64,000 nucleotides of DNA from contig CBFIIO010000008.1 in the NCBI GenBank assembly GCA_965662465.1, forward strand, positions 30,088 through 94,087, read 5' to 3'. Of this stretch, positions 2,527 to 16,304 are shown one piece after another. Positions within the stretch are counted from its first letter, which is position 1; each line of letters begins with the position of its first letter. The position numbers were made by a program, and so were the translations under genes. The DNA comes from Planctomycetota bacterium (GTDB lineage: Bacteria; Planctomycetota; UBA1135; UBA2386). The notes under the pieces were generated by a model that made no database searches, had not been told where the DNA came from, and worked only from the letters and a program-made list of their open reading frames with translations.

Positions 2527-4119
2527 CTACAAACTGTCGAGGAACTTGCCTGGCTCGTAGTTACCAAGGTCAAGGATCTTGGTGCAAACGCGGTCAAGGA
2601 AGTAGCGGTCGTGGGAAACGATCACCATGCAGCCCGGGAAGTTGTTGATGCCTTCCTCAAGCACGCGCAGCGTGTCCAAATCCAAGTCGTTAGTTGGTTC
2701 GTCAAGTAGGATGACATTGCCGCCCCGACGAAGCATTTTTGCAAGCTGCACACGGTTTCGTTGACCGCCTGACAGAGATCCAACCTTCTGTTGCTGGTCT
2801 GGCCCAGTAAAGTTGAACTTCGCGACATAGCTGCGACTGTTCATCTCCTGTTTGCCAAGCCTGATGATGTCTTGGCTATCGGCAATCTCTTCCCAAACTG
2901 TGCGGTTAGGATCGAGCGTTTCGCGCTCCTGATCTACGTGACAAAGTTCGACGGTCTTACCAACTGTCACCTTGCCCTGCTGCGGCTCTAACTTGCCGGT
3001 GATGAGTTTCAGGCAAGTAGTCTTACCGGTACCGTTTGGACCGACAATTCCTAGGATGTCGCCAGGCTGCATGTCAAATGACATGTTCTCGAGCACATTC
3101 CGCTCACCATTGTATGAGAAGAAAACCTTCTCAAATCGAATGATCGTGTCTCCTAGCCGCTTACCCGCCGGAATAGCTAACTCGACGCTATCTTCCGACT
3201 GTTGAACCTCGGTAGAGATCATCTTGTCGTAGTTCTTTAGGCGAGACTTGTTCTTGGTAGCACGCGCCTTTGGGTTCATGCGAATCCACTCGAGTTCACG
3301 CTCAAGGAACTTCGCGCGTTTCTGTTGCGCTTGCTCTTGCGATGCCATGCGCTTGCTACGCTGAATCAGGTATTCAGAGTAGTTACCTTGGTAAGGGATT
3401 GCGCGACTGTTCCAGATCTCCAGCATCCAGCCAACGACGTTGTCTAGGAAGAAGCGGTCGTGGGTGATGACAACGACGGTTCCCTTGTAGGCAGCGAGTG
3501 TTTCCTCTAGCCAGCTAACTGTTTCGACATCCAAGTGGTTGGTAGGTTCGTCGAGCAGCAGCAAATCAGGTTGCTCCAGAAGGGTGCGACACAGAGCGAC
3601 ACGACGTCGCTCACCACCACTACATGCCTTGACCATTTTGTCGCCCGCGGGCAAGCAAAGCTTGGTCATTGCCGTCTCAACATGTCGATCAAGCTCCCAG
3701 GCGTCCTTGGTTTCGATTTCGGCCTGCAGCCGCTCGAAGTCTGCCATGACCTTGTCCATCTCAGCTTCGTTGAGATCTTCGCCAAGCTTCATGCTTACGT
3801 CTTCGTGTGCCTTAAGCAGGTTACGAATCGGCTCGACAGCCTTCTCGACATTCTCACGAACCGTTAGATCTTCGAGCAGTGCGGGCTCTTGGGGCACGTA
3901 GCCGACGGTCATGCCATCAGCTAGACGCGCAACCCCCTCAAACTCCGTGTCCTGGCCCGACATGATGCGCATCAATGTCGACTTGCCAGCACCGTTCTGG
4001 CCAATGACGCCAATTTTGGCACCGTAGTTAAAGACCAAGCTGACGTCGTTTAGGACGGGCTTCTTGTTCTGGTAGCTCTTAGTGAGTCTTTCGACGGCAA
4101 AGATGGGCTTATCGCTCAT
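2527..4119 (-). CDS. ettA: ABC-F ATPase EttA (energy-dependent translational throttle)
   Basis: Two ABC cassettes (GQNGAGKSTL / LSGGERRRVAL / LLLDEPTNHLD and GPNGTGKTT / LSGGQRNRVQL / ILLDEPTNDLD). About 530 aa and collinear with E. coli EttA as I recall it (..VGYVPQEP.., ..YQGNYSEYL.., ..VSHDRYFLDR..). Start moved to ATG 4119 (MSDKPIF), inside the listed 2527..4191 ORF. Confidence 0.9.
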   Translation of the reverse strand: MSDKPIFAVERLTKSYQNKKPVLNDVSLVFNYGAKIGVIGQNGAGKSTLMRIMSGQDTEFEGVARLADGMTVGYVPQEPALLEDLTVRENVEKAVEPIRNLLKAHEDVSMKLGEDLNEAEMDKVMADFERLQAEIETKDAWELDRHVETAMTKLCLPAGDKMVKACSGGERRRVALCRTLLEQPDLLLLDEPTNHLDVETVSWLEETLAAYKGTVVVITHDRFFLDNVVGWMLEIWNSRAIPYQGNYSEYLIQRSKRMASQEQAQQKRAKFLERELEWIRMNPKARATKNKSRLKNYDKMISTEVQQSEDSVELAIPAGKRLGDTIIRFEKVFFSYNGERNVLENMSFDMQPGDILGIVGPNGTGKTTCLKLITGKLEPQQGKVTVGKTVELCHVDQERETLDPNRTVWEEIADSQDIIRLGKQEMNSRSYVAKFNFTGPDQQQKVGSLSGGQRNRVQLAKMLRRGGNVILLDEPTNDLDLDTLRVLEEGINNFPGCMVIVSHDRYFLDRVCTKILDLGNYEPGKFLDSL

Positions 4120-4212
4120 GGGGGCAAACAGCTTAGCGATGCATAAAACGGTTTCTAGGAGCGACAGGCCCAATGCGAAAGACAACTGCAATCTAACGGG
4201 TCTGTCTCGCCT

Positions 4213-5094
4213 CTACTTAGGGAGAGTCGCGGCCGTAGGATTTCTCACGGCTGCTGGAAGACGGTGAATCATCAGCGCAACAGCCGGTTTCTTGGTCTCA
4301 AATACTGATGTAACCGCCCCCACGATCCGCGTTTGCTCAGTTGTGACTGTTTCTGTCAGGACGTAACCACGAAAGATCCCAACGATCTCAGGTCGCTGGG
4401 TCTCGTAGTTCCAGATCATCGCAGCCCCTCCAGACATACCATTGAGTTCGAATGCTTCGCCGATCGCATACCAAGCGGGTTGTTTGTCGCTTGTTGCCCG
4501 GATTCTCACACGAACACACGGGGTCGGCGCCTTGACGTCAATTTTCATGTCGGGGAAAAATCCTGCGGCGTAACCAACCAAAAGCACTTCGGTGGCGATT
4601 TCAGGAACCCAACGATGATCACGTGTCGCTGGGTAGACGCTGACGACACGAACCCAGTTTGGCTTCTCAAACGCCAAAATCGCCCAATCGCCGTGTGGTA
4701 ATTCCGGGTCTCCCGCAGACTCGACGACGGCTGTAGTCGTCTCACCATCAATTCTGATAGACAACCTACCCCGTTCGTCTCGTGTCAATCCCGCTACAAC
4801 ATGAGCGGCCGTTAAGACTCTGTCAGGCGCAATCACGGTACCGCTACCAATGGTGCGGGTTTAGTCATCATGAATCAGCACCACCGAATCGAGCGATCCA
4901 GGTGCTACAAATGATGGAGTCTGATCTTCGAAGTGCTTCTCTAGATAGGTGAGATCTGATTTATTGGTCGACCTGGAGGCTGATTTAGTCTTCGCGCATC
5001 CAGCGCTAAAAGCAAACCCAACCAAACTTAGGCTGATTGCCAAAAGCCTAGACGAAAGACGAATCATGTTCTGAGTGTTGTAGCTACAGGCCAT
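4213..5094 (-). pseudogene. Lipoprotein trypsin-like (chymotrypsin-fold) serine protease interrupted by one in-frame TAA (4861-4863)
   Basis: ORFs 4861..5094 and 4213..4836 share one frame. My hand translation reads ..GSLDSVVLIHDD-TAA-TRTIGSGTVIAPDRVLTAAHVV... The upstream piece carries the signal peptide and lipobox (LVGFAFSAGC). The downstream piece carries the His box, the Asp (GDWAILAF) and the Ser (NGMSGGA). Confidence 0.75.
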
Positions 5095-5874: not shown

Positions 5875-6462
5875 CTATAGCCTCTTCGACTGCTGGATAG
5901 CTTCGTCTCCAGCATCGAAAATGCTCATCCAATCGTCTGCGTTATTTTTGGGTGCAGCCTTACGACGCAGACTCTCTGCTTCGCGGCGAGCCAGGTCATG
6001 TTTGACCCATGCCCCGTAATCCTTGTAGAGGTCTCCAAGCACTTTCTTGTTCTCGGAGATTAGTCCTACATACGGAAACAAATCGCAGCTGTGCTCCTTT
6101 TGAATCTTTGAGATGTCCTCAAAGGAGAGCATGACAGGCATCGCCACCGTCACGATGTCGCCAAACGTATCGAGAGGCACCATCGTGTATTTGAACAGCG
6201 TCTCCTTTGGGAAACGCGCCTTAGCCTCTTCACTGATGGAGTAGTTCCCAGCCATCAAGAAAGGCAGGTTGAATTTATCAGTGATGACTTTGGCAAGATC
6301 CCATTCTGTGATGTGACCGCCGTTCACCAGGATCTGCGCGAACGGTTCCCCGTTCTTGTCCTGCGAGTAGAGCGCATCCGTAATGATTTCGGACGACACG
6401 GCGCCACGGTCGGTCAGGATCTCTGCGAGCCTAACGGACGTGATCTTTTCGATACCCTTCAC
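5875..6462 (-). CDS. Stand-alone T2SSE_N / MshEN-domain protein (candidate c-di-GMP receptor)
   Basis: aa 11-34 RLAEILTDRGAVSSEIITDALYSQ and aa 40-63 PFAQILVNGGHITEWDLAKVITDK resemble the tandem 24-residue MshEN motif. After the GspE N-terminal-like region there is no ATPase domain. Confidence 0.6.
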   Translation of the reverse strand: MKGIEKITSVRLAEILTDRGAVSSEIITDALYSQDKNGEPFAQILVNGGHITEWDLAKVITDKFNLPFLMAGNYSISEEAKARFPKETLFKYTMVPLDTFGDIVTVAMPVMLSFEDISKIQKEHSCDLFPYVGLISENKKVLGDLYKDYGAWVKHDLARREAESLRRKAAPKNNADDWMSIFDAGDEAIQQSKRL

Positions 6463-6706: not shown

Positions 6707-8203
6707 CTAAGCGTAGATCCAAAACGTCAAGCTAGCGTGAACCGCCAATACCAAAGCCATGCCAATGACGATGGCTGAGTTGACACTCTCGCCAACATCA
6801 GAACTGGAGCGTTTTGGGCCCGTGCCCAGGTGGTAGCAACAAAGTGCTACTAGATAGCCGGACAAAGTAGATTTGGCTAAAATGACCAGCACATCGTGAG
6901 CAGTGACGCTCATGAAGTAGGCACTTGCCCACCCAACCATACTGATGCCTGAAACGGATGCGGCGAGCGCAGCTGCGAGTGCGGCGGCAATCACACCACC
7001 CATAGTCACCAGTGGCGTAGCAATGACCATTGCCCATACCAAAGGTGTCAGAAGGTAGTCGGCAGGCTTCACGCCCATCATCCGCAATGCAGCAATCTGG
7101 TTGGTGCGCTTCATCGTACCAATCCTTGCAGACGCTCCAGCAGCGATTCGGGCAGTAAAGAAGAAGCCACTCAACATTGGCACCAACACTGCAGTCGAAA
7201 CCTTGCCAGTGCCGGTAAGCAATGCAGATTCGAACCCTCCATCGATCGGATTGTTACGGAGCGCAAAGAAGGTTGCTAGACCACCAATAACGGCAGCTGC
7301 GACCGCTACAAACAATGCGGGCTCAAGCGTGAATCGAATTGTCGTACGTATGGTCTGACCCAACTCAACCGGTGGCAATCGCCTAATCGACTCTAGCACG
7401 GTTTCGCCAATCGCAGCCAGTTGCAGGAGCGTCCGACGTATCCAGTGAACAGCTGCTGCCTCAACTTGATCTGATTCCACCACCGCTAGAGGCCTAGCAT
7501 GTCCAGACAATCGGAAGTCTCGTCCTTCTAAGCGCAGTGACCGAGCTTCTCGGTTGAGCACCAGTATGCCGTCAGTAATATCCTTAAACGCGTCAAGATC
7601 ATGTGTGATCACGATCGTTGTTCGGCCTTCATCCTGATCGTGTGCTTCACGTAATAACTTGGCGATAGTGCCAGCGGCCTCTGGGTCCAGTCCTGCAGTT
7701 GGCTCATCACAGAGCAAAAGCTGGGGAGCCGAAGCCAAGACCCGCGCAACCGCAACTCGCTTACGCATGCCGCCTGATAGCTGCGCGATTCGTTTGGGAG
7801 GATCGTTCAAGCCCGCTTGCGCCAACAAAGCTGGAGCCAGCTTGAGTGAACGACCAGCAGCTCGCAGCGCCATTTCGACGTTTTCAACAGGACTTAACTC
7901 ATCAAGCAGGCCCTCGTCCTGAAGGATGGCAGCAACTTCGCTACCACTTTGATCTGCTTGGTCACAGGTTAGTGACTTACCAAAAGCAATCAGTTCACCG
8001 GACATTCGTGGGGCTGGTTCCCGCGATTCAATCAGACCAGCGAGAATACGAAGCAGCGACGATTTGCCACCACCGCTTGTGCCAATGAACACAAAGAAGC
8101 CGTTGCGAGGCAACGTCAGGTTAACAGCATCTAGCAACACCTCTTCGCCACCTGCATGGCGATGAGCTAGCCCAAAGTTGCGGAATACCAGCGCGTCACT
8201 CAT
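6707..8203 (-). CDS. Fused ABC ATPase (MlaF-like) and MlaE-like permease
   Basis: N-terminal half: Walker A GTSGGGKSSL, signature LSGGMRKRVAVARVL, Walker B LLLCDEPTAGLD, H-loop ITHDL. C-terminal half: MlaE-type permease (..FFTARIAAGASARIGTMKRTNQIAALRMMGVKPADYLLTPLVWA..). Confidence 0.8.
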   Translation of the reverse strand: MSDALVFRNFGLAHRHAGGEEVLLDAVNLTLPRNGFFVFIGTSGGGKSSLLRILAGLIESREPAPRMSGELIAFGKSLTCDQADQSGSEVAAILQDEGLLDELSPVENVEMALRAAGRSLKLAPALLAQAGLNDPPKRIAQLSGGMRKRVAVARVLASAPQLLLCDEPTAGLDPEAAGTIAKLLREAHDQDEGRTTIVITHDLDAFKDITDGILVLNREARSLRLEGRDFRLSGHARPLAVVESDQVEAAAVHWIRRTLLQLAAIGETVLESIRRLPPVELGQTIRTTIRFTLEPALFVAVAAAVIGGLATFFALRNNPIDGGFESALLTGTGKVSTAVLVPMLSGFFFTARIAAGASARIGTMKRTNQIAALRMMGVKPADYLLTPLVWAMVIATPLVTMGGVIAAALAAALAASVSGISMVGWASAYFMSVTAHDVLVILAKSTLSGYLVALCCYHLGTGPKRSSSDVGESVNSAIVIGMALVLAVHASLTFWIYA

Positions 8204-8227: not shown

Positions 8228-9697
8228 TTATTGGGGCCGAAGATCACTAGGCAAGCATTTGAGTCGAACGATTGCGGACTCGTCACCACCAGCCTTGCGT
8301 CCGAATACTCCAACAACTCTATCGCCGATAAAAACACCCCCACCTAGGTTGTCCTCACTGATCCTAAGGTCGGCAATCGATTGACTAGGCATCTCTGCAC
8401 CATCTGGTCCAGCAGTACGTAATACATGCTCAGCGGACACATCTGACTCGCTGTCAAACATCAAGCGATTGCTTGGAGTAACCAGTAAGTCCGGCTTCGC
8501 ATCCTCAAGTACTAGCACTGCAATATCAGAACCTGAAGGGTCTACCCAAACGCGACCAGCACGCATGACTGTGCCGTCACCTAGCTGCACTTTGATCTGC
8601 TCACCAGTGATCTCTAAATCACCCCAACCATCAGTCTCGGTAAACGATGCATCGATCAAAGATCGAGCAGTCGCGACGATGCTTCTGCCAACACGATCTC
8701 TAAACAACACACCTGAACCTGATCGCACGATGTGATCGTCAGCGCTGAATGTGTCCTTCTCGATTGCCGCATACGTAATTCGAACCAGGACGACATCGTC
8801 ACTAACAACTGTTTGCGCTTCGTTGTTTTCAGTTAGAGCTTTACTAGGAACTGGGGAAATTTCGAAGTCTGGCCGCTCCAGTTCAGCCGCCGCGCGATAC
8901 CCATCTTGAACCAATACACCTTCCCCTGGTGCACCGTAGTAACTGACATATGGCGACAACAAGGCACTGATGTCAGTAACAGAGAAGCCACTCAGTAAAG
9001 CTCCACTAACATTTGGACGACCAACCCAGAACTTACTCTTGTCAGTCACCGTCTGACGATGCTCACGCTTAATGCGCAACTTAACTTCTACATGCGTTCC
9101 AGAGGGTGCGAGTGAAACTGAGCGAACGTCTCCAGTCGAAACTCCGCGAAAGTTCACGGCACTGCCTGGTTTGAGTTCGTAATTCTCAGGAACAAGCAAT
9201 GTCATCAACAGATCGCCATGCTCAACATCATCAAGTGCCTCTGGCGCAAAGTTGGTCGGTGGCCATTCGCGCCCATGAACCAAACTGCCTGCTGACAAGA
9301 CAGAGTCACTGCCTGGCGGTGTGTAGAACGCGATATAGGGGTCACGAACTAAGGTATCGAGACCGGTTGCTTCACCCGTCAAGCCACCAAACCGCGGCGT
9401 GACAATCCAGAAACTCGAATTGACGTATGCGTGCGCAGCTCCAATTGGTTCCAGCAATAATTTTGCTACAGCCTTTTTGCCATCTCCTGAGACGGCCACA
9501 GATCTAACCGCACCAACAGTTACTCCACGGAACCGCACATCAGTGCCAGGCCGCAATCCACGCGCATCATGAAACTCAACGCTGACAGCCATTCCTGGGC
9601 GTTCGTCAAGACTACGCAGTAAACGCACAATCCAAACAGCAGCAACAATGGCGCTGACCAAGGTCAGCAAGCCGATGAGGTAGCGTAATCGATGCAT
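8228..9697 (-). CDS. PqiB/MlaD-like protein with two MCE domains and a C-terminal degenerate trypsin-fold domain
   Basis: N-terminal TM helix. MCE domains around aa 36-130 (VEFHDARGLRPGTDVRFRGVTVGAVRSV..SSFWIVTPRF) and aa 165-260 (ELKPGSAVNFRGVSTGDVRSV..SKFWVGRPNV). aa ~300-489 read GSGVLF..IVATARSL..SDIAVLVL..NLGGGVFIGDRVVGVFG. Confidence 0.8.
   Translation of the reverse strand: MHRLRYLIGLLTLVSAIVAAVWIVRLLRSLDERPGMAVSVEFHDARGLRPGTDVRFRGVTVGAVRSVAVSGDGKKAVAKLLLEPIGAAHAYVNSSFWIVTPRFGGLTGEATGLDTLVRDPYIAFYTPPGSDSVLSAGSLVHGREWPPTNFAPEALDDVEHGDLLMTLLVPENYELKPGSAVNFRGVSTGDVRSVSLAPSGTHVEVKLRIKREHRQTVTDKSKFWVGRPNVSGALLSGFSVTDISALLSPYVSYYGAPGEGVLVQDGYRAAAELERPDFEISPVPSKALTENNEAQTVVSDDVVLVRITYAAIEKDTFSADDHIVRSGSGVLFRDRVGRSIVATARSLIDASFTETDGWGDLEITGEQIKVQLGDGTVMRAGRVWVDPSGSDIAVLVLEDAKPDLLVTPSNRLMFDSESDVSAEHVLRTAGPDGAEMPSQSIADLRISEDNLGGGVFIGDRVVGVFGRKAGGDESAIVRLKCLPSDLRPQ

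Positions 9698-9802: not shown

Positions 9803-9803
<1 letters not shown>
9784..9803 (-). terminator. Hairpin overlapping the gyrB stop codon (possible terminator or attenuator)
   Basis: GTCTGGT-ttgtcg-ACCAGAC, a 7-bp stem immediately at or after the gyrB stop. No U-tract follows. Confidence 0.25.
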
Positions 9804-12286
<2,483 letters not shown>

Positions 12287-12385
12287 TTAATAAGCGTTGG
12301 TCAGTGTCATCACTGACCAATGTGCAACGCAGCCAATGTTAGCTGCTTTGCGTTGATTGACATTCTGTAAGAACTAACAACCAGG

Positions 12386-12685
12386 TCACATGCGTCCGGT
12401 GCCGCCGAGTCGAAATGACAATTGGGCAACAGGTGCGTCTGGGACAAGTTCGTTAATGCGAGTGCGGATCTCTTCGCTTCGAAAACCGGAGAGTTCTGCA
12501 AACAACGGCGCCGAGTTGAGTTCGACAACAAGTCGTCCTTTACGAAAGCCGAGAATTTGAAAGTGTGGGGCGAGTTCCGCACCGAGGATCTTTTCAAGAG
12601 CGTCGACGTAGACTCGTCGTGACTTACCACTGCCCGCAGATTTGAGGATCTCGCGTAGGAAGTCACTTGCCGGTCTAGGTTCCAC
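12386..12685 (-). CDS. dciA: DUF721 / DciA-like protein (putative replicative-helicase operator)
   Basis: 99 aa; ..FQILGFRKGRLVVELNSAPLFAELSGFRSEEIRTRINE.. is typical of DUF721. It sits between dnaN and gyrB, where recF/DUF721 usually occur. Confidence 0.65.
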   Translation of the reverse strand: MEPRPASDFLREILKSAGSGKSRRVYVDALEKILGAELAPHFQILGFRKGRLVVELNSAPLFAELSGFRSEEIRTRINELVPDAPVAQLSFRLGGTGRM

Positions 12686-12765
12686 TTTGAATTGGGTCCA
12701 CGAAATTGGATGAGATGACCAATAGATTGATGACTGTTGTGAGTCACTGATCTAAGCGCCATCAG

Positions 12766-13866
12766 TTACGCACCACTGATTGGCATGACCACGTAGGTAA
12801 ATGATTCACCCAAGGTAAATTTGGCTGGCATCGAGTCGTCGGACATATCCAACCGAACTTGATCTAAACCACATTGACGTAACGCCTCTAAAATGTAGTC
12901 AGGGTTGAAGTTGATGCTGCCACCCGAGCCTTTCACTACGGCATCGATAGAGACATCAGCTCGACCACGTGAGGAACTCTCAGCAGTCATTCGCAAACTG
13001 TTGTCACCAACTTCAAACTTCACCATCCGCATTTCTGCAGCACACAAGATGGCGGCCCGACGCAGTGCGCTCTCAAGCAATGACTTTTGAATATCTACGG
13101 TGGTATCAGCGGACTTAGGCATGACGCCCTCATAATCCGGGAACCTCGTATCAAGTAACTGGCTGACCAATTGAGTTTGACCAGTTGTAAAGACCACCTG
13201 CTTCTCTCCTACGTCGAGAACGATCTGGTCCTTATTGCCGTCTGAGAGGGCACGTGCGAGTGTGCTAAGGGCGCGCAAAGGCACAACAGCCTTGAACTGC
13301 ACATCCTCGTCAGACTCGATATTTTCATAGCTGATCGCTAGCCGGCGACCATCGGTAGCTACCAGTCGCACACAGCCGGCCCCAGAATCAACCAGGACGC
13401 CGTTAATCGCGTAGCGAGTCTCTTCCCTCGCTGCAGCAAACATCGTCTCCTGGATCATCCTGTGGAGCACACTGCTTGGCATCTCAAGGCGCTTGCCAGC
13501 ACCGACCACAGTCTCGGCAGGAAACTGTTCTGGATCTTCGCCGAGCAACACAAAGGAACCGCCACCACTTTCAATCCGACAGCGAAGATCGGAACTCTCA
13601 AGCGTCACCGTTGGATCACTCAGTTCACGCAGCAGCGCAACGGTTTCCTTGCCTGGCAAGAGCACGGTGCCTTCTTTTGAGACTTTGACAGAGTCGAGAC
13701 GAACCTTAGCGGCCATCTCCAGGTCTGTAGCGAAGAGCGATATGCCTTCACCGTCAGCTCGCAGCAACACGTTCTGCAGGATCGGCTTGGTAGTCTTGGA
13801 AGGGACTACCGAGGACACAACGCTGACCGCTTCAAGCAGCGCAACTCGATCACAGAGAATCTTCAT
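12766..13866 (-). CDS. dnaN: DNA polymerase III beta sliding clamp
   Basis: 366 aa; MKILCDRVALLEAV...KPILQNVLLRADGEGISLFATDLEMA.. Three-domain length and dnaA-adjacent position. Confidence 0.95.
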   Translation of the reverse strand: MKILCDRVALLEAVSVVSSVVPSKTTKPILQNVLLRADGEGISLFATDLEMAAKVRLDSVKVSKEGTVLLPGKETVALLRELSDPTVTLESSDLRCRIESGGGSFVLLGEDPEQFPAETVVGAGKRLEMPSSVLHRMIQETMFAAAREETRYAINGVLVDSGAGCVRLVATDGRRLAISYENIESDEDVQFKAVVPLRALSTLARALSDGNKDQIVLDVGEKQVVFTTGQTQLVSQLLDTRFPDYEGVMPKSADTTVDIQKSLLESALRRAAILCAAEMRMVKFEVGDNSLRMTAESSSRGRADVSIDAVVKGSGGSINFNPDYILEALRQCGLDQVRLDMSDDSMPAKFTLGESFTYVVMPISGA

Positions 13867-14600
13867 CGATTTAAGACCATGAACAGTTTGGTCGAAGGTA
13901 AGGCAGAACAGAAAACGCTGATGCGTTGGGTAACTCGATTCAAAAGAAGCACCTGTTCATGTTGGCTGATGCTGTTTGAGTCGGACCGGTTTTGTGCAGC
14001 CAATGGGTGAGTCTGTTATAGAGAGAAATTCTCTCTCTTCTGTCATCACCCGTGCTGTCACGAGTCTTAATAAGTTAGCCGTTAGACCCTTCTAGATCGA
14101 TGTAGAAACCGACCTTCCGTTCGTTTCCAGGATCTTGAAAACAGCTCAAGAGGAATACTTTTGTTCCCCCCAGGATTCCCCCAATCGGAGTGGATGATCG
14201 TTGCCCCCCTGATTCCGAGGAGAAGCATCCACGTTTGTCCGCTATTGCTCCAAACCGTGTCCCTAGGGTATTCACGGGTTTCGTGACGCTTAGGTTGCAA
14301 TAACTGCTACGTGCGGCTCTCAGCATCCTCAAGGCGTCAAGAGATTGGTTAGCTACGTGGCTCATTAGGGTGAGGCTGCCACGCGTCCGAGGACGGATTA
14401 ACGAGGGCAGATATGGTGGGCTACGGGCTTGTATCCACCCACCAAAATGGGCTGGGGATGGACGAAAGCCGCGTGATTTTGGCTTCGAATGGTGAAGCCG
14501 CCAATCTACTACAGAGTCGCCGCGAACAAAAGCTTGCCAGTGAGGCTAAACTACGCTTGTCAGCGACCCTAGGATCGGTCTTAGAAGGGAATTGGTGCCC
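13867..14600. promoter_or_regulatory. 734-bp dnaA-dnaN spacer; candidate oriC and dnaN promoter region
   Basis: No convincing ORF. Three DnaA-box-like elements contain ATCCAC: 14189-14197 (TCATCCACT on the minus strand), 14225-14233 (GCATCCACG) and 14431-14439 (GTATCCACC). There is a 17-bp palindrome AGAGAGAA-A-TTCTCTCT at 14020-14036 and several hairpins in 14410-14520. Confidence 0.35.
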
Positions 14601-16304
14601 TTAGGTGCGGAACGACCGCGTCATCAGGCGGCTACTCAGACCATCGAGTAGTTCCTTGAACATACGGTCCTTAGTGGATCGTTCGCGGACCTTGTTGACC
14701 GCGTAGATCACTGTCGTGTGGTCACGATTGCCAAAGATCTTACCGATATCCTCAAGGGAGCTTTCTGTGTGCTCACGCAGCAAGAACATAGCTATCTGGC
14801 GTGGCATGCTGACCGCTTGGGTGCGGCTTTTACCGATGAGTTCCCGTGCCATGATGGCGAACTCACCAGTGATCAACGCCATCACCTCTTCGGAAGTGAC
14901 CTGGGCCCGGCGCATCGGCATCCCGCGCAAGCAACGTTCTGCTAGCGCCAGCGTTATAGGTTGATCAGTAATCGCAGCAAAGCCGACGACCTTGATCACA
15001 GCGCCCTCGAGCTCCCGAATGTTGGATGTCACACGTTCGGCCAAGAACTGAGCGACTTCTTCAGGGAGATCGACCCCACGACCAGCAGCCTTGTTGCTGA
15101 CAATGGCCTTACGGGTGTCGATGCACGGAGTCTCTACCTCAGCGACCAACCCCCATTTGAAGCGCGAAACGAGCCGCTCTTCGATTGTAGGAATCTCGAC
15201 AGGAGGACGGTCTGATGACAGCACAATTTGACGCTGTCCATCAAAGAGTGCGTTGAACGTGTGGAAGAACTCATCCTGAGTCTTCTCCTTGTTGGCCAAG
15301 AACTGGATGTCATCAATGACAAGGACATCCGCTCCCCGGTGGTATTCGCGGAAGCTGTCGATTTGATGTGCTTGGATTGCCTGAATGTAGGAGTTCGTGA
15401 AGTTTTCGCAGCTCATGTAGAGCACGCGAGCATTTGGGTCACGACGCAAGACCGTATGGCAAATCGCCTGTAGCAAATGTGTCTTCCCAAGCCCGACATT
15501 CCCATGCACAAACAATGGGTTGTATGCGTGACCGGGGTTTTCACCGATAGCTAGCGCTGAGGCATGTGCCAAGCGGTTGCATGGTCCAACTACAAAGCGA
15601 TCAAACGTGTAGTTGGGGTTCAGTGGATGGCTGATGCGATTGCCCGGTCGTTGGCGGTATCCTTCTTGTGGATGCTGGGTTGGCTCAGCTGGGACAGTTG
15701 CTCCCAAGTCGGTCCTATTGGCTGCAGCACCATGAATTACGCCACTACTGGCAGGTTGGTTGGCTGACGTGCGGGTTACTGGTGGGGTTGGTGCCCCATC
15801 AATGCTTCGGATGCGAGCATCTGCAGTGTTGCGCATGACTCGTTCAATCTCATCTGCAGGTGAGGTTTGCACCATACGGAGACTGTCTTGACCATCTTCA
15901 GCACGATGGGTCAGGACAAGACGACGACGACCATTGGATGTTCCCAGTGAATCGACGGCTTCCTGCATCTCTCGCAGGTAGTTCTTCGCAAGCCAATCAC
16001 GCACAAACTGACTTGTTACCGACAACTCTATTTCGGCGTCGTCAGCGCGAACGATAAGTAGCGAGCGAAACCAAGTCTCCAACTGCTCCTTACGGACACG
16101 GACAACTAAGTGGTTGAGAAGCTTCTGCAGCAAATCGGAGTTGTCAGCGCCTGTGGCAGATTGTTGCGGTGCTGCGTTTTGTGACTCTATCGAGTTTGTG
16201 GCTGCGGAGTTTGTGACTGTCGAGTTTGTGACTGTCGCAGCTTGCGTTCCATCTAAAGGGTTTGTGGAGTTCAACGGATTATAGTTCGAGTCGTGGGCCG
16301 CCAT
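14601..16304 (-). CDS. dnaA: Chromosomal replication initiator DnaA with an extended low-complexity N-terminal region
   Basis: AAA+ core ..NPLFVHGNVGLGKTHLLQAI.., ..VLVIDDIQFL.., and C-terminal DNA-binding domain ..SRTQAVSMPRQIAMFLLRE..LEDIGKIFGNRDHTTVIYA... Confidence 0.95.
   Translation of the reverse strand: MAAHDSNYNPLNSTNPLDGTQAATVTNSTVTNSAATNSIESQNAAPQQSATGADNSDLLQKLLNHLVVRVRKEQLETWFRSLLIVRADDAEIELSVTSQFVRDWLAKNYLREMQEAVDSLGTSNGRRRLVLTHRAEDGQDSLRMVQTSPADEIERVMRNTADARIRSIDGAPTPPVTRTSANQPASSGVIHGAAANRTDLGATVPAEPTQHPQEGYRQRPGNRISHPLNPNYTFDRFVVGPCNRLAHASALAIGENPGHAYNPLFVHGNVGLGKTHLLQAICHTVLRRDPNARVLYMSCENFTNSYIQAIQAHQIDSFREYHRGADVLVIDDIQFLANKEKTQDEFFHTFNALFDGQRQIVLSSDRPPVEIPTIEERLVSRFKWGLVAEVETPCIDTRKAIVSNKAAGRGVDLPEEVAQFLAERVTSNIRELEGAVIKVVGFAAITDQPITLALAERCLRGMPMRRAQVTSEEVMALITGEFAIMARELIGKSRTQAVSMPRQIAMFLLREHTESSLEDIGKIFGNRDHTTVIYAVNKVRERSTKDRMFKELLDGLSSRLMTRSFRT
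16177..16236. repeat. About 4 copies of a 15-bp tandem repeat inside the dnaA 5' coding region
   Basis: gagtttgtgactgtc repeated at 16207-16221 and 16222-16236, with degenerate copies upstream. It encodes ..TVTNSTVTNSAATNS... Confidence 0.8.

Follow-up and report, generated by a model that had tools for sequence, protein, structure and literature searches.

The window analysed here is a stretch of 64,000 nucleotides from a bacterium of the Planctomycetota (assembly GCA_965662465.1, contig CBFIIO010000008.1, positions 30,088 to 94,087). On its reverse strand, at 8228-9697 (stop codon 8228-8230), lies a gene for a 489-residue protein in which two MCE domains are followed by a C-terminal domain with the fold of a trypsin-like protease and a degenerate active site. 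A first-pass annotation had drawn attention to nucleotides 8231-8800, corresponding to residues 300-489, as a catalytically dead trypsin-fold domain carried by a PqiB-like protein. The partner gene, also on the reverse strand (6707-8203), begins 24 nucleotides downstream of the MCE gene and encodes a 498-residue fusion of MlaF and MlaE. Here, Pfam assigns an ATP-binding cassette (ABC) ATPase domain (ABC_tran) to residues 24-170 (1.4e-23) and an MlaE permease domain to residues 289-493 (6.9e-31).

The MCE protein, all of whose parts are read from the reverse strand, starts with a transmembrane anchor helix at residues 2-30 (9608-9694). This was assigned from the DSSP secondary structure of an AlphaFold 2 (AF2) model, in which its predicted local distance difference test (pLDDT) values are 91-96, and its sequence is hydrophobic (LIGLLTLVSAIVAAVWIV). 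We infer a topology in which this helix lies in the inner membrane and the remainder of the protein is periplasmic. MCE domain 1 (residues 36-143; 9269-9592) contains a Pfam MlaD stretch at residues 37-106 and aligns to MCE1 of LetB (YebT), and MCE domain 2 (residues 163-272; 8882-9211) corresponds to the second MlaD stretch and to the AF2 strands between residues 163 and 272. Together, the two stretches match MlaD/MCE (PF02470) with 85.3 bits against a cutoff of 25.1. Sequence matches to proteins of solved structure were confined to residues 14-240, with LetB/YebT (E 2.6e-30) and PqiB (E 1.2e-9). The best NCBIfam model was PqiB (NF008070), with a score of 89.7 bits that does not reach the equivalog cutoff of 525. 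The label "PqiB-like" is therefore apt at the level of the MCE superfamily but not beyond it, given this score and a partner that is a fused MlaF-MlaE and not PqiA.

The full-length AF2 model, computed from an alignment of 62 homologues, had a mean pLDDT of 79.4 and a predicted template modelling score (pTM) of 0.54. Helices other than the membrane anchor are all short in this model (4-7 residues). Two loops of low pLDDT, at residues 103-117 of MCE domain 1 and 230-246 of MCE domain 2, sit where we take the pore-lining loops of MCE domains to be expected. Model confidence is also low in the linker that joins the MCE domains to the C-terminal domain (residues 273-302; 8792-8881), where pLDDT falls below 50 at residues 282-284 and 289-297. 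The linker is nevertheless of fixed length, with 30-32 residues in 43 orthologues, and contains the conserved pairs R275/P276 and V283/P284.

The C-terminal domain consists of 187 residues (303-489) and, in the full-length model, follows the low-confidence linker as residues 304-489. The last 190 residues of the protein matched no Pfam family even at E ≤ 10, an NCBIfam scan was likewise empty, and a profile built from close relatives of the domain found no match among PDB sequences. A separate AF2 model of residues 285-489 was computed from an alignment of 14 close relatives retrieved with the same residues. The resulting model (mean pLDDT 86.9, pTM 0.84) was beta-rich, with its first 15 residues disordered, and the same fold was repeated in the full-length model at a domain pLDDT of about 90. 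A Foldseek search of the PDB with the domain model gave 184 matches at E ≤ 0.001. The top 50 were all HtrA1, HtrA3, DegP, DegQ, DegS, Esp or V8, that is, chymotrypsin-fold proteases, each with a probability of 1.00, E values of 2e-6 to 2e-5 and template modelling (TM) scores of 0.44-0.59. The order of domains put forward in the first-pass annotation, two MCE domains and then a trypsin-fold C terminus, is thus borne out by Pfam for the former and by AF2 and Foldseek, which retrieved only chymotrypsin-fold proteases, for the latter.

Sequence profiles led to the same group of proteins. An hhalign comparison of 51 family domains with the protease domains of Escherichia coli DegS, DegP and DegQ (sequences from NC_000913.3) gave an E value of 3.9e-5 and a probability of 70% over 161 columns; local mode was used, since global mode gave a meaningless alignment of 20 columns. 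When the family profile was compared with PDB sequences, 31 of the 33 weak matches were HtrA proteases (E 0.04-1.3). Isolated C-terminal domains of relatives matched Pfam Trypsin_2 (PF13365) at E ≤ 1 in 13 of 25 cases, with a best E value of 4.2e-6. The highest Trypsin_2 score among the relatives listed was that of the full-length distant member P0051 (26.1 bits, below the gathering threshold of 27.6), and two further distant members, P0056 and P0065, matched Trypsin_2 across the full length of the model.

By AF2 and alignment to HtrA, residues 303-397 (8507-8791) form the N-terminal beta-barrel of the domain (barrel 1), which bears the GxG motif (327-329), the former His site (T343-A-R345-S346) and the Asp site (D391-I-A). 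Residues 398-475 (8273-8506) form the C-terminal beta-barrel (barrel 2), which is poorly conserved, and residues 476-489 (8231-8272) form a tail in which family column counts reveal a near-invariant L-P-x-D-L-R-P motif. Sequence blocks held in common with the HtrA family (MEROPS S1C), in addition to the fold itself, are GSGV, T-x-x-[H]-V-x-D, IKVQL-DG and SDIAxL, together with GG-x-h, hVGh and an hP ahead of the C-terminal helix. In the hhalign alignment with DegS, the LP of the tail pairs with the "AIP" that precedes the HtrA C-terminal helix. Given this pairing, the protein stops where the C-terminal helix and PDZ domain of HtrA begin; it ends at residue 489, a few residues past the last strand, and Pfam found no PDZ domain in it. 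Taken together, residues 303-489 are descended from an HtrA-type serine protease, from which they differ in the replacement of His by Ser346 and of Ser by Leu451, in the absence of a PDZ domain and in their fusion to MCE domains. The domain is consistently acidic, with a net charge of about -10. The first and second strands of barrel 1 are joined by a strongly conserved acidic hairpin loop, E313-x-D315-x-x-S318-x-D320-D321 (residues 313-321; 8735-8761), which corresponds in position to the LA loop of HtrA and may have a role in cation binding or at an interface.

The motifs on which the first-pass annotation had relied are all present, and their coordinates were verified: GSGVLF at residues 327-332, IVATARSL at 340-347, GSDIAVLVL at 389-397 and NLGGGVFIGDRVVGVFG at 450-466. 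At the His site, the hhalign register against DegS is anchored on Thr343, such that T343-A-R345-S346-L is set against T-N-K/N-H-V of HtrA, and both a model strand at residues 339-343 and a helical turn at 345-348 agree with it. Given this anchor and the strand and turn boundaries, it is Ser346, and not Arg345, that stands at the position of the catalytic His (codons of both residues, 8660-8665); the arginine that had been placed there is the preceding residue. The catalytic Asp had been correctly identified, as GSDIAVLVL pairs with "RSDIALIQI" of DegP and "LTDLAVLKI" of DegS, and the alignments agree on Asp391 (codon 8525-8527) as its retained equivalent. The position of the catalytic Ser had been assigned to a glycine and is instead occupied by Leu451 (codon 8345-8347) in the HMMER alignment to DegP, where DNLGG is set against GNSGG. 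Leu451 lies three residues ahead of a strand that starts at residue 454 in the AF2 models. An ungapped hhalign register puts Asn450, one residue earlier, at the Ser position, so that neither register places a serine there. Although the earlier assignments at the His and Ser sites were one to two residues out of register, the description of the domain as catalytically dead holds, since neither His nor Ser is present at its catalytic position. In summary, the domain has lost His and Ser but retains Asp391 and, in the oxyanion loop, the Gly-Gly backbone.

The same positions were then counted in a family alignment of about 137 sequences, comprising those of 47 genome loci and database matches. The position before the His site is Arg in 118 of 121 sequences, and the His site itself is Ser in 104, Ala in 7, Thr in 5 and His in none of the 121. 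Asp is found at the Asp site in 121/128 sequences. For the Ser site (alignment column 206), HMMER pairs R/L-G-A/G of the family with S(A)-G-G of DegP, and the six commonest residues among 113 sequences are Leu (41), Arg (40), Ala (5), Gly (5), His (4) and Val (3); Ser is not among them. Position 452 is Gly in 100/115 and position 453 is Ala or Gly in 107/115. No His occurs at alignment columns 99 and 100, no column across the whole domain contains His in ≥40% of sequences, and no His or Lys is conserved anywhere in the domain. Judged from this alignment, the canonical catalytic machinery is absent family-wide and not merely in the window protein. A divergent subfamily (P0051, P0056 and P0065) was observed that is without the C-terminal LRP tail, with P0056 and P0065 ending in acidic tails. 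Its members score nearest to Trypsin_2 (up to 26.1 bits) yet have Arg-Ser/Thr at the His site, which argues that catalysis was lost before the subfamilies split.

A search with the full-length protein revealed at least 230 clusters of homologues at 90% identity, and the 120 clusters listed contained proteins of 481-514 residues, almost all of which covered 100% of the query. A profile search of 1.84 billion representatives returned 78 proteins (clusters at 50% identity) with no canonical protease among them, and the architecture is common to the full-length members of those clusters. One further candidate, P0069, a match of 1038 residues with eight "stretches", was rejected as an unrelated repeat protein with an Lcl_C domain. 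In a scan of one genome per species, 47 loci were found, nearly all in metagenome-assembled genomes labelled Planctomycetota and none in a cultured strain. The named homologues listed are mostly called "MlaD/MCE family protein" or "hypothetical", with one "Paraquat-inducible protein", and PF02470 is the only precomputed Pfam domain of note in them.

Conservation differs among the parts of the protein. Identity to the window protein, averaged over 43 full-length orthologues, is 65% for MCE domain 1, 72% for MCE domain 2, 50% for the linker, 62% for barrel 1, 32% for barrel 2 and 56% for the tail. The length of barrel 1 is 95-96 residues in the orthologues, and that of barrel 2 with the tail varies between 84 and 113 residues. 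Within the tail, the column counts are 114/114 for P483, 105/112 for L486, 108/112 for R487 and 107/107 for P488. In the MCE domains the nonsynonymous divergence (dN) was 0.10-0.29, compared with 0.19-0.30 in barrel 1 and 0.34-0.64 in barrel 2; synonymous sites were saturated, and dN was far under the saturated synonymous divergence (dS) in all parts of the protein. Purifying selection on barrel 1 and on the LPxDLRP tail matches that on the MCE domains in strength.

The genetic context of the MCE gene was compared among the 47 loci by tblastn. In every related locus with enough flanking sequence, the MCE gene is immediately upstream of the MlaF-MlaE fusion gene, and the order dnaA-dnaN-DUF721-gyrB-MCE gene-MlaF-MlaE fusion-MshEN-like gene is preserved in essentially all of them. 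In 40+ loci, the interval from gyrB to the MshEN-like gene contains no gene besides the MCE gene and the fusion. There is no MlaC-like gene at the locus, and the window contains neither a second MCE or pseudo-protease gene nor an HtrA gene, the latter sought with a profile built from three E. coli sequences. The MlaF-MlaE fusion is itself conserved across the clade, and the gene order, with the MCE gene first, is the reverse of that of E. coli mlaFED.

Comparison with characterized systems places the protein in the MCE/MlaD superfamily, as it has an MCE domain above threshold, an N-terminal anchor and a neighbouring gene for an MlaE-type permease and ABC ATPase. Like E. coli PqiB and LetB (YebT), it has an N-terminal membrane anchor followed by tandem MCE domains, of which there are two in place of the three of PqiB or the seven of LetB. 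The alpha-helical needle at the C terminus of PqiB is absent; by contrast, the last 187 residues of the window protein are beta-rich and have a trypsin fold. The partner is likewise different, a fused MlaF-MlaE in place of PqiA or LetA, and the PqiB operon with PqiA and the lipoprotein PqiC is not matched at this locus. A chimeric Mla-Pqi system of Brucella abortus, Mpc, is encoded by the operon mpcEFDA, in which E and F are separate genes and mpcA is the fourth, and has been proposed to bridge both membranes (PMC12436622). Mpc resembles the system described here in combining an MlaE/MlaF-type ABC transporter with MCE-protein features of Mla and Pqi. In the window, however, a single gene combines E and F, the operon has no counterpart of a fourth gene and the MCE protein ends in a pseudo-protease.

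Three layouts of the MlaD C terminus have been described, in which the protein has nothing beyond MCE, continues into a helical extension or carries an outer-membrane beta-barrel, and systems consisting of MlaEFD only are thought to bridge the envelope via C-terminal extensions of MlaD (PMC10665443). The outer-membrane beta-barrel type of MlaD is absent in bacteria of the Planctomycetes-Verrucomicrobia-Chlamydiae (PVC) group, in which no means of connecting MCE transporters to the outer membrane is known (PMC10665443). The long MlaD of Veillonella parvula belongs, like the window protein, to a minimal Mla system, with no MlaA, MlaB or MlaC in the locus and a C-terminally extended MCE protein. 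Its extension is an alpha-helical region with an outer-membrane beta-barrel, whereas that of the window protein is a second MCE domain and a soluble double-barrel protease fold; in the Foldseek search the C-terminal domain matched soluble proteases and not outer-membrane barrels. A precedent for the degenerate domain is MamO of magnetotactic bacteria, a protein of the trypsin/HtrA fold that has a degenerate active site and a non-catalytic role, binds transition metals via a surface di-histidine motif and promotes proteolysis by MamE (PMC4794232). The domain described here shares with MamO the trypsin fold, the degenerate active site and retention under selection, and differs from it in its fusion partner and in the lack of a di-histidine motif, given that no column of the family alignment reaches 40% His. 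A fusion of MCE domains with a pseudo-protease is not described in PMC10665443, PMC12436622 or PMC4794232. Literature searches for MCE or MlaD combined with a pseudoprotease, trypsin-like or protease-like domain found no description, and databases label the family MlaD/MCE only, in keeping with the earlier suggestion that the combination had not been reported. The family thus adds another bacterial pseudo-protease, whose domain is overlooked by current domain databases.

Each studied system connects its MCE proteins to the outer membrane in a different way, by a shuttle that is soluble, by a helical needle, by a tube of seven rings or by a barrel in the outer membrane. The reading we prefer, with a probability of roughly 0.55, is that the product is the periplasmic subunit of an Mla-type ABC lipid transporter, in which the pseudo-protease, placed distally, serves for docking or capping and not for catalysis. 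In this arrangement, the N-terminal helix would anchor the MCE protein in the inner membrane and, by analogy with MlaD/MlaFEDB, PqiB and LetB, six copies would assemble into a pair of stacked MCE rings, enclosing a central hydrophobic pore, on top of an (MlaF-MlaE)2 dimer. The distal end of this assembly would then consist of six pseudo-protease domains with a non-catalytic function. These would either connect the exit of the tunnel to a cell-wall or outer-membrane partner or else cap or gate the tunnel, with contact made via the former peptide-binding cleft and conserved charged residues. The cap binding a peptide or outer-membrane protein that the first-pass annotation suggested would be a reasonable function of this kind. 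The domain would thereby stand in for the helical needle of PqiB, for the shuttle MlaC or for the beta-barrel that long MlaD proteins have in the outer membrane. Read in this way, the family would add a conserved, clade-wide alternative, a protease fold without catalysis joined to the tunnel end, and the domain would be a concrete candidate for the distal contact of an MCE tunnel.

A more specific form of this proposal can be put forward only tentatively. Here, a crown of six HtrA-derived domains would be the outer end of a trans-envelope lipid conduit, and the old cleft would grip a cell-wall peptide or a segment of an outer-membrane protein. Were this true, the crown would constitute a fourth, hitherto unrecognised MCE route to the outer membrane, in addition to the shuttle MlaC, the needle of PqiB and the barrel of MlaD, and would explain how an MlaEFD-only system functions in a Planctomycetota clade without the barrel type.

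Several points weigh against the docking or capping proposal. The TM-scores of the Foldseek matches (0.44-0.59) are only moderate for the modelled domain, and the triad equivalences come from profile alignments and secondary-structure register. With a pTM of 0.54 and a low-confidence linker, the full-length model is a poor guide to the placement of the domain relative to the rings. Neither an outer-membrane lipoprotein nor any other partner candidate is present in the operon in the related loci. Furthermore, since the whole neighbourhood from dnaA to the ABC-F gene is syntenic, only the tight pairing of the MCE gene with MlaF-MlaE is informative.

The main competing explanation, which we regard as rather doubtful, is that the old active site has become a ligand pocket for an anionic head group, either the phosphate of a phospholipid or a carboxylate. 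Binding would be by Arg345, the backbone of Gly452-Gly/Ala453 and, in the roughly one third of the family where position 451 is also Arg, by this second arginine, such that lipid would be handed over or received at the tunnel exit by what amounts to a tethered substitute for MlaC. The residues nearest the old catalytic centre are indeed the best conserved of the domain (Arg345 in 118/121, Gly452 in 100/115, Ala or Gly at 453 in 107/115, and Arg in 40 and Leu in 41 of 113 at position 451), and the locus has no MlaC-like gene. However, a net charge of about -10 would be unfavourable to anionic lipids, the second Arg is missing in the subclade of the window protein itself, which has Leu451, and barrel 2, which would supply half of any cleft, is poorly conserved (32%). 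In addition, we know of no lipid-carrying cavity in the chymotrypsin fold. Another reading is that enzymatic activity persists, directed at a lipid or peptide substrate and exerted from a non-canonical centre such as Ser346 with Asp391. These two residues are conserved (86% and 95%, respectively) and would be close together if the fold is as modelled, but the Ser195 position holds Leu or Arg and hence no nucleophile, a conserved His or Lys is found nowhere in the domain, and 14% of members have Ala, Thr, Gly, Gln or Pro in place of Ser346. To our knowledge, no mechanism of the Ser346/Asp391 type exists for the chymotrypsin fold, and retained catalysis is accordingly considered very improbable.

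The kinship with HtrA raises the alternative that the domain is a decoy with a regulatory role, which forms hetero-oligomers with a genuine HtrA-type protease or activates it and so couples envelope protein quality control to the lipid transporter. HtrA proteases, the nearest relatives of the domain in both sequence and structure, assemble through their protease domains, and a precedent is provided by MamO, a pseudoprotease that promotes its partner protease MamE (PMC4794232). Such a role appears unlikely, given that no HtrA gene is linked to the locus and none in the window matches the HtrA profile, that the nearby trypsin-like gene is found in only 3/47 loci and is interrupted here, and that the pseudo-protease domain is without a PDZ domain. 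Finally, the poor conservation of barrel 2 (32% identity and variable length) would be expected of a decaying remnant of a once-active protease fusion with no present function. This view is already disfavoured and has the least to commend it, as the conservation of barrel 1 and of the tail resembles that of the MCE domains, the full-length domain is kept in at least 230 clusters, and dN falls far short of the saturated dS in every part.

The trypsin-like gene in question lies about 4 kb from the pseudo-protease, on the reverse strand at 4213-5080, and is split by a single in-frame TAA at 4861-4863. The open reading frame (ORF) at 4213-4836 matches Trypsin_2 (2.9e-5) with LTAAHV ... DWAIL ... 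GMSGG intact, and a lipoprotein-type signal is found upstream of the split. In the orthologue of locus L003, the position of the TAA is occupied by Gln (IHDDQTRTIGSG), and the TAA reflects a nonsense mutation of recent date or else an error of sequencing. The first-pass annotation had regarded this gene as an active paralogue of the pseudo-protease domain. That relationship was rejected, with an hhalign probability of 2-4% as against the 70% obtained with E. coli HtrA proteases, and the gene accompanies the MCE locus in only 3 of the 47 related genomes. The sole block common to both is a generic "hVGh...LPxxhR" C terminus, which is also present in HtrA as "AIP". On these profile comparisons, the ORF at 4213-4836 is related to the pseudo-protease domain no more closely than by fold.

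The MlaF-MlaE gene is followed immediately, in almost every related locus, by a conserved gene for a 195-residue protein with an MshEN domain (5875-6462, reverse strand). Its N terminus (residues 11-34 and 40-63, with a five-residue spacer) fits the tandem 24-residue motif that binds cyclic di-GMP (PMC5013675), with deviations that comprise Ala for Gly3 in both halves and, at two hydrophobic positions, Thr at position 7 of the first half and His at position 11 of the second. From its motif, this protein could be a receptor for cyclic di-GMP; a link to the transporter is unproven. Three further genes are syntenic with the locus in many genomes; they encode an outer-membrane-type protein with DUF481 (730-1773), a membrane protein of the FUN14 family (1900-2493) and an ATPase of the ABC-F type (2527-4191). 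No evidence ties these genes between 730 and 4191 functionally to the MCE system. Upstream of the MCE gene, gyrB, a DUF721-like ORF, dnaN and dnaA follow in a row at 9803-16304. The cumulative GC skew of the window has its minimum near 14 kb, and the replication origin is therefore probably in the dnaN-dnaA intergenic region (13867-14600).

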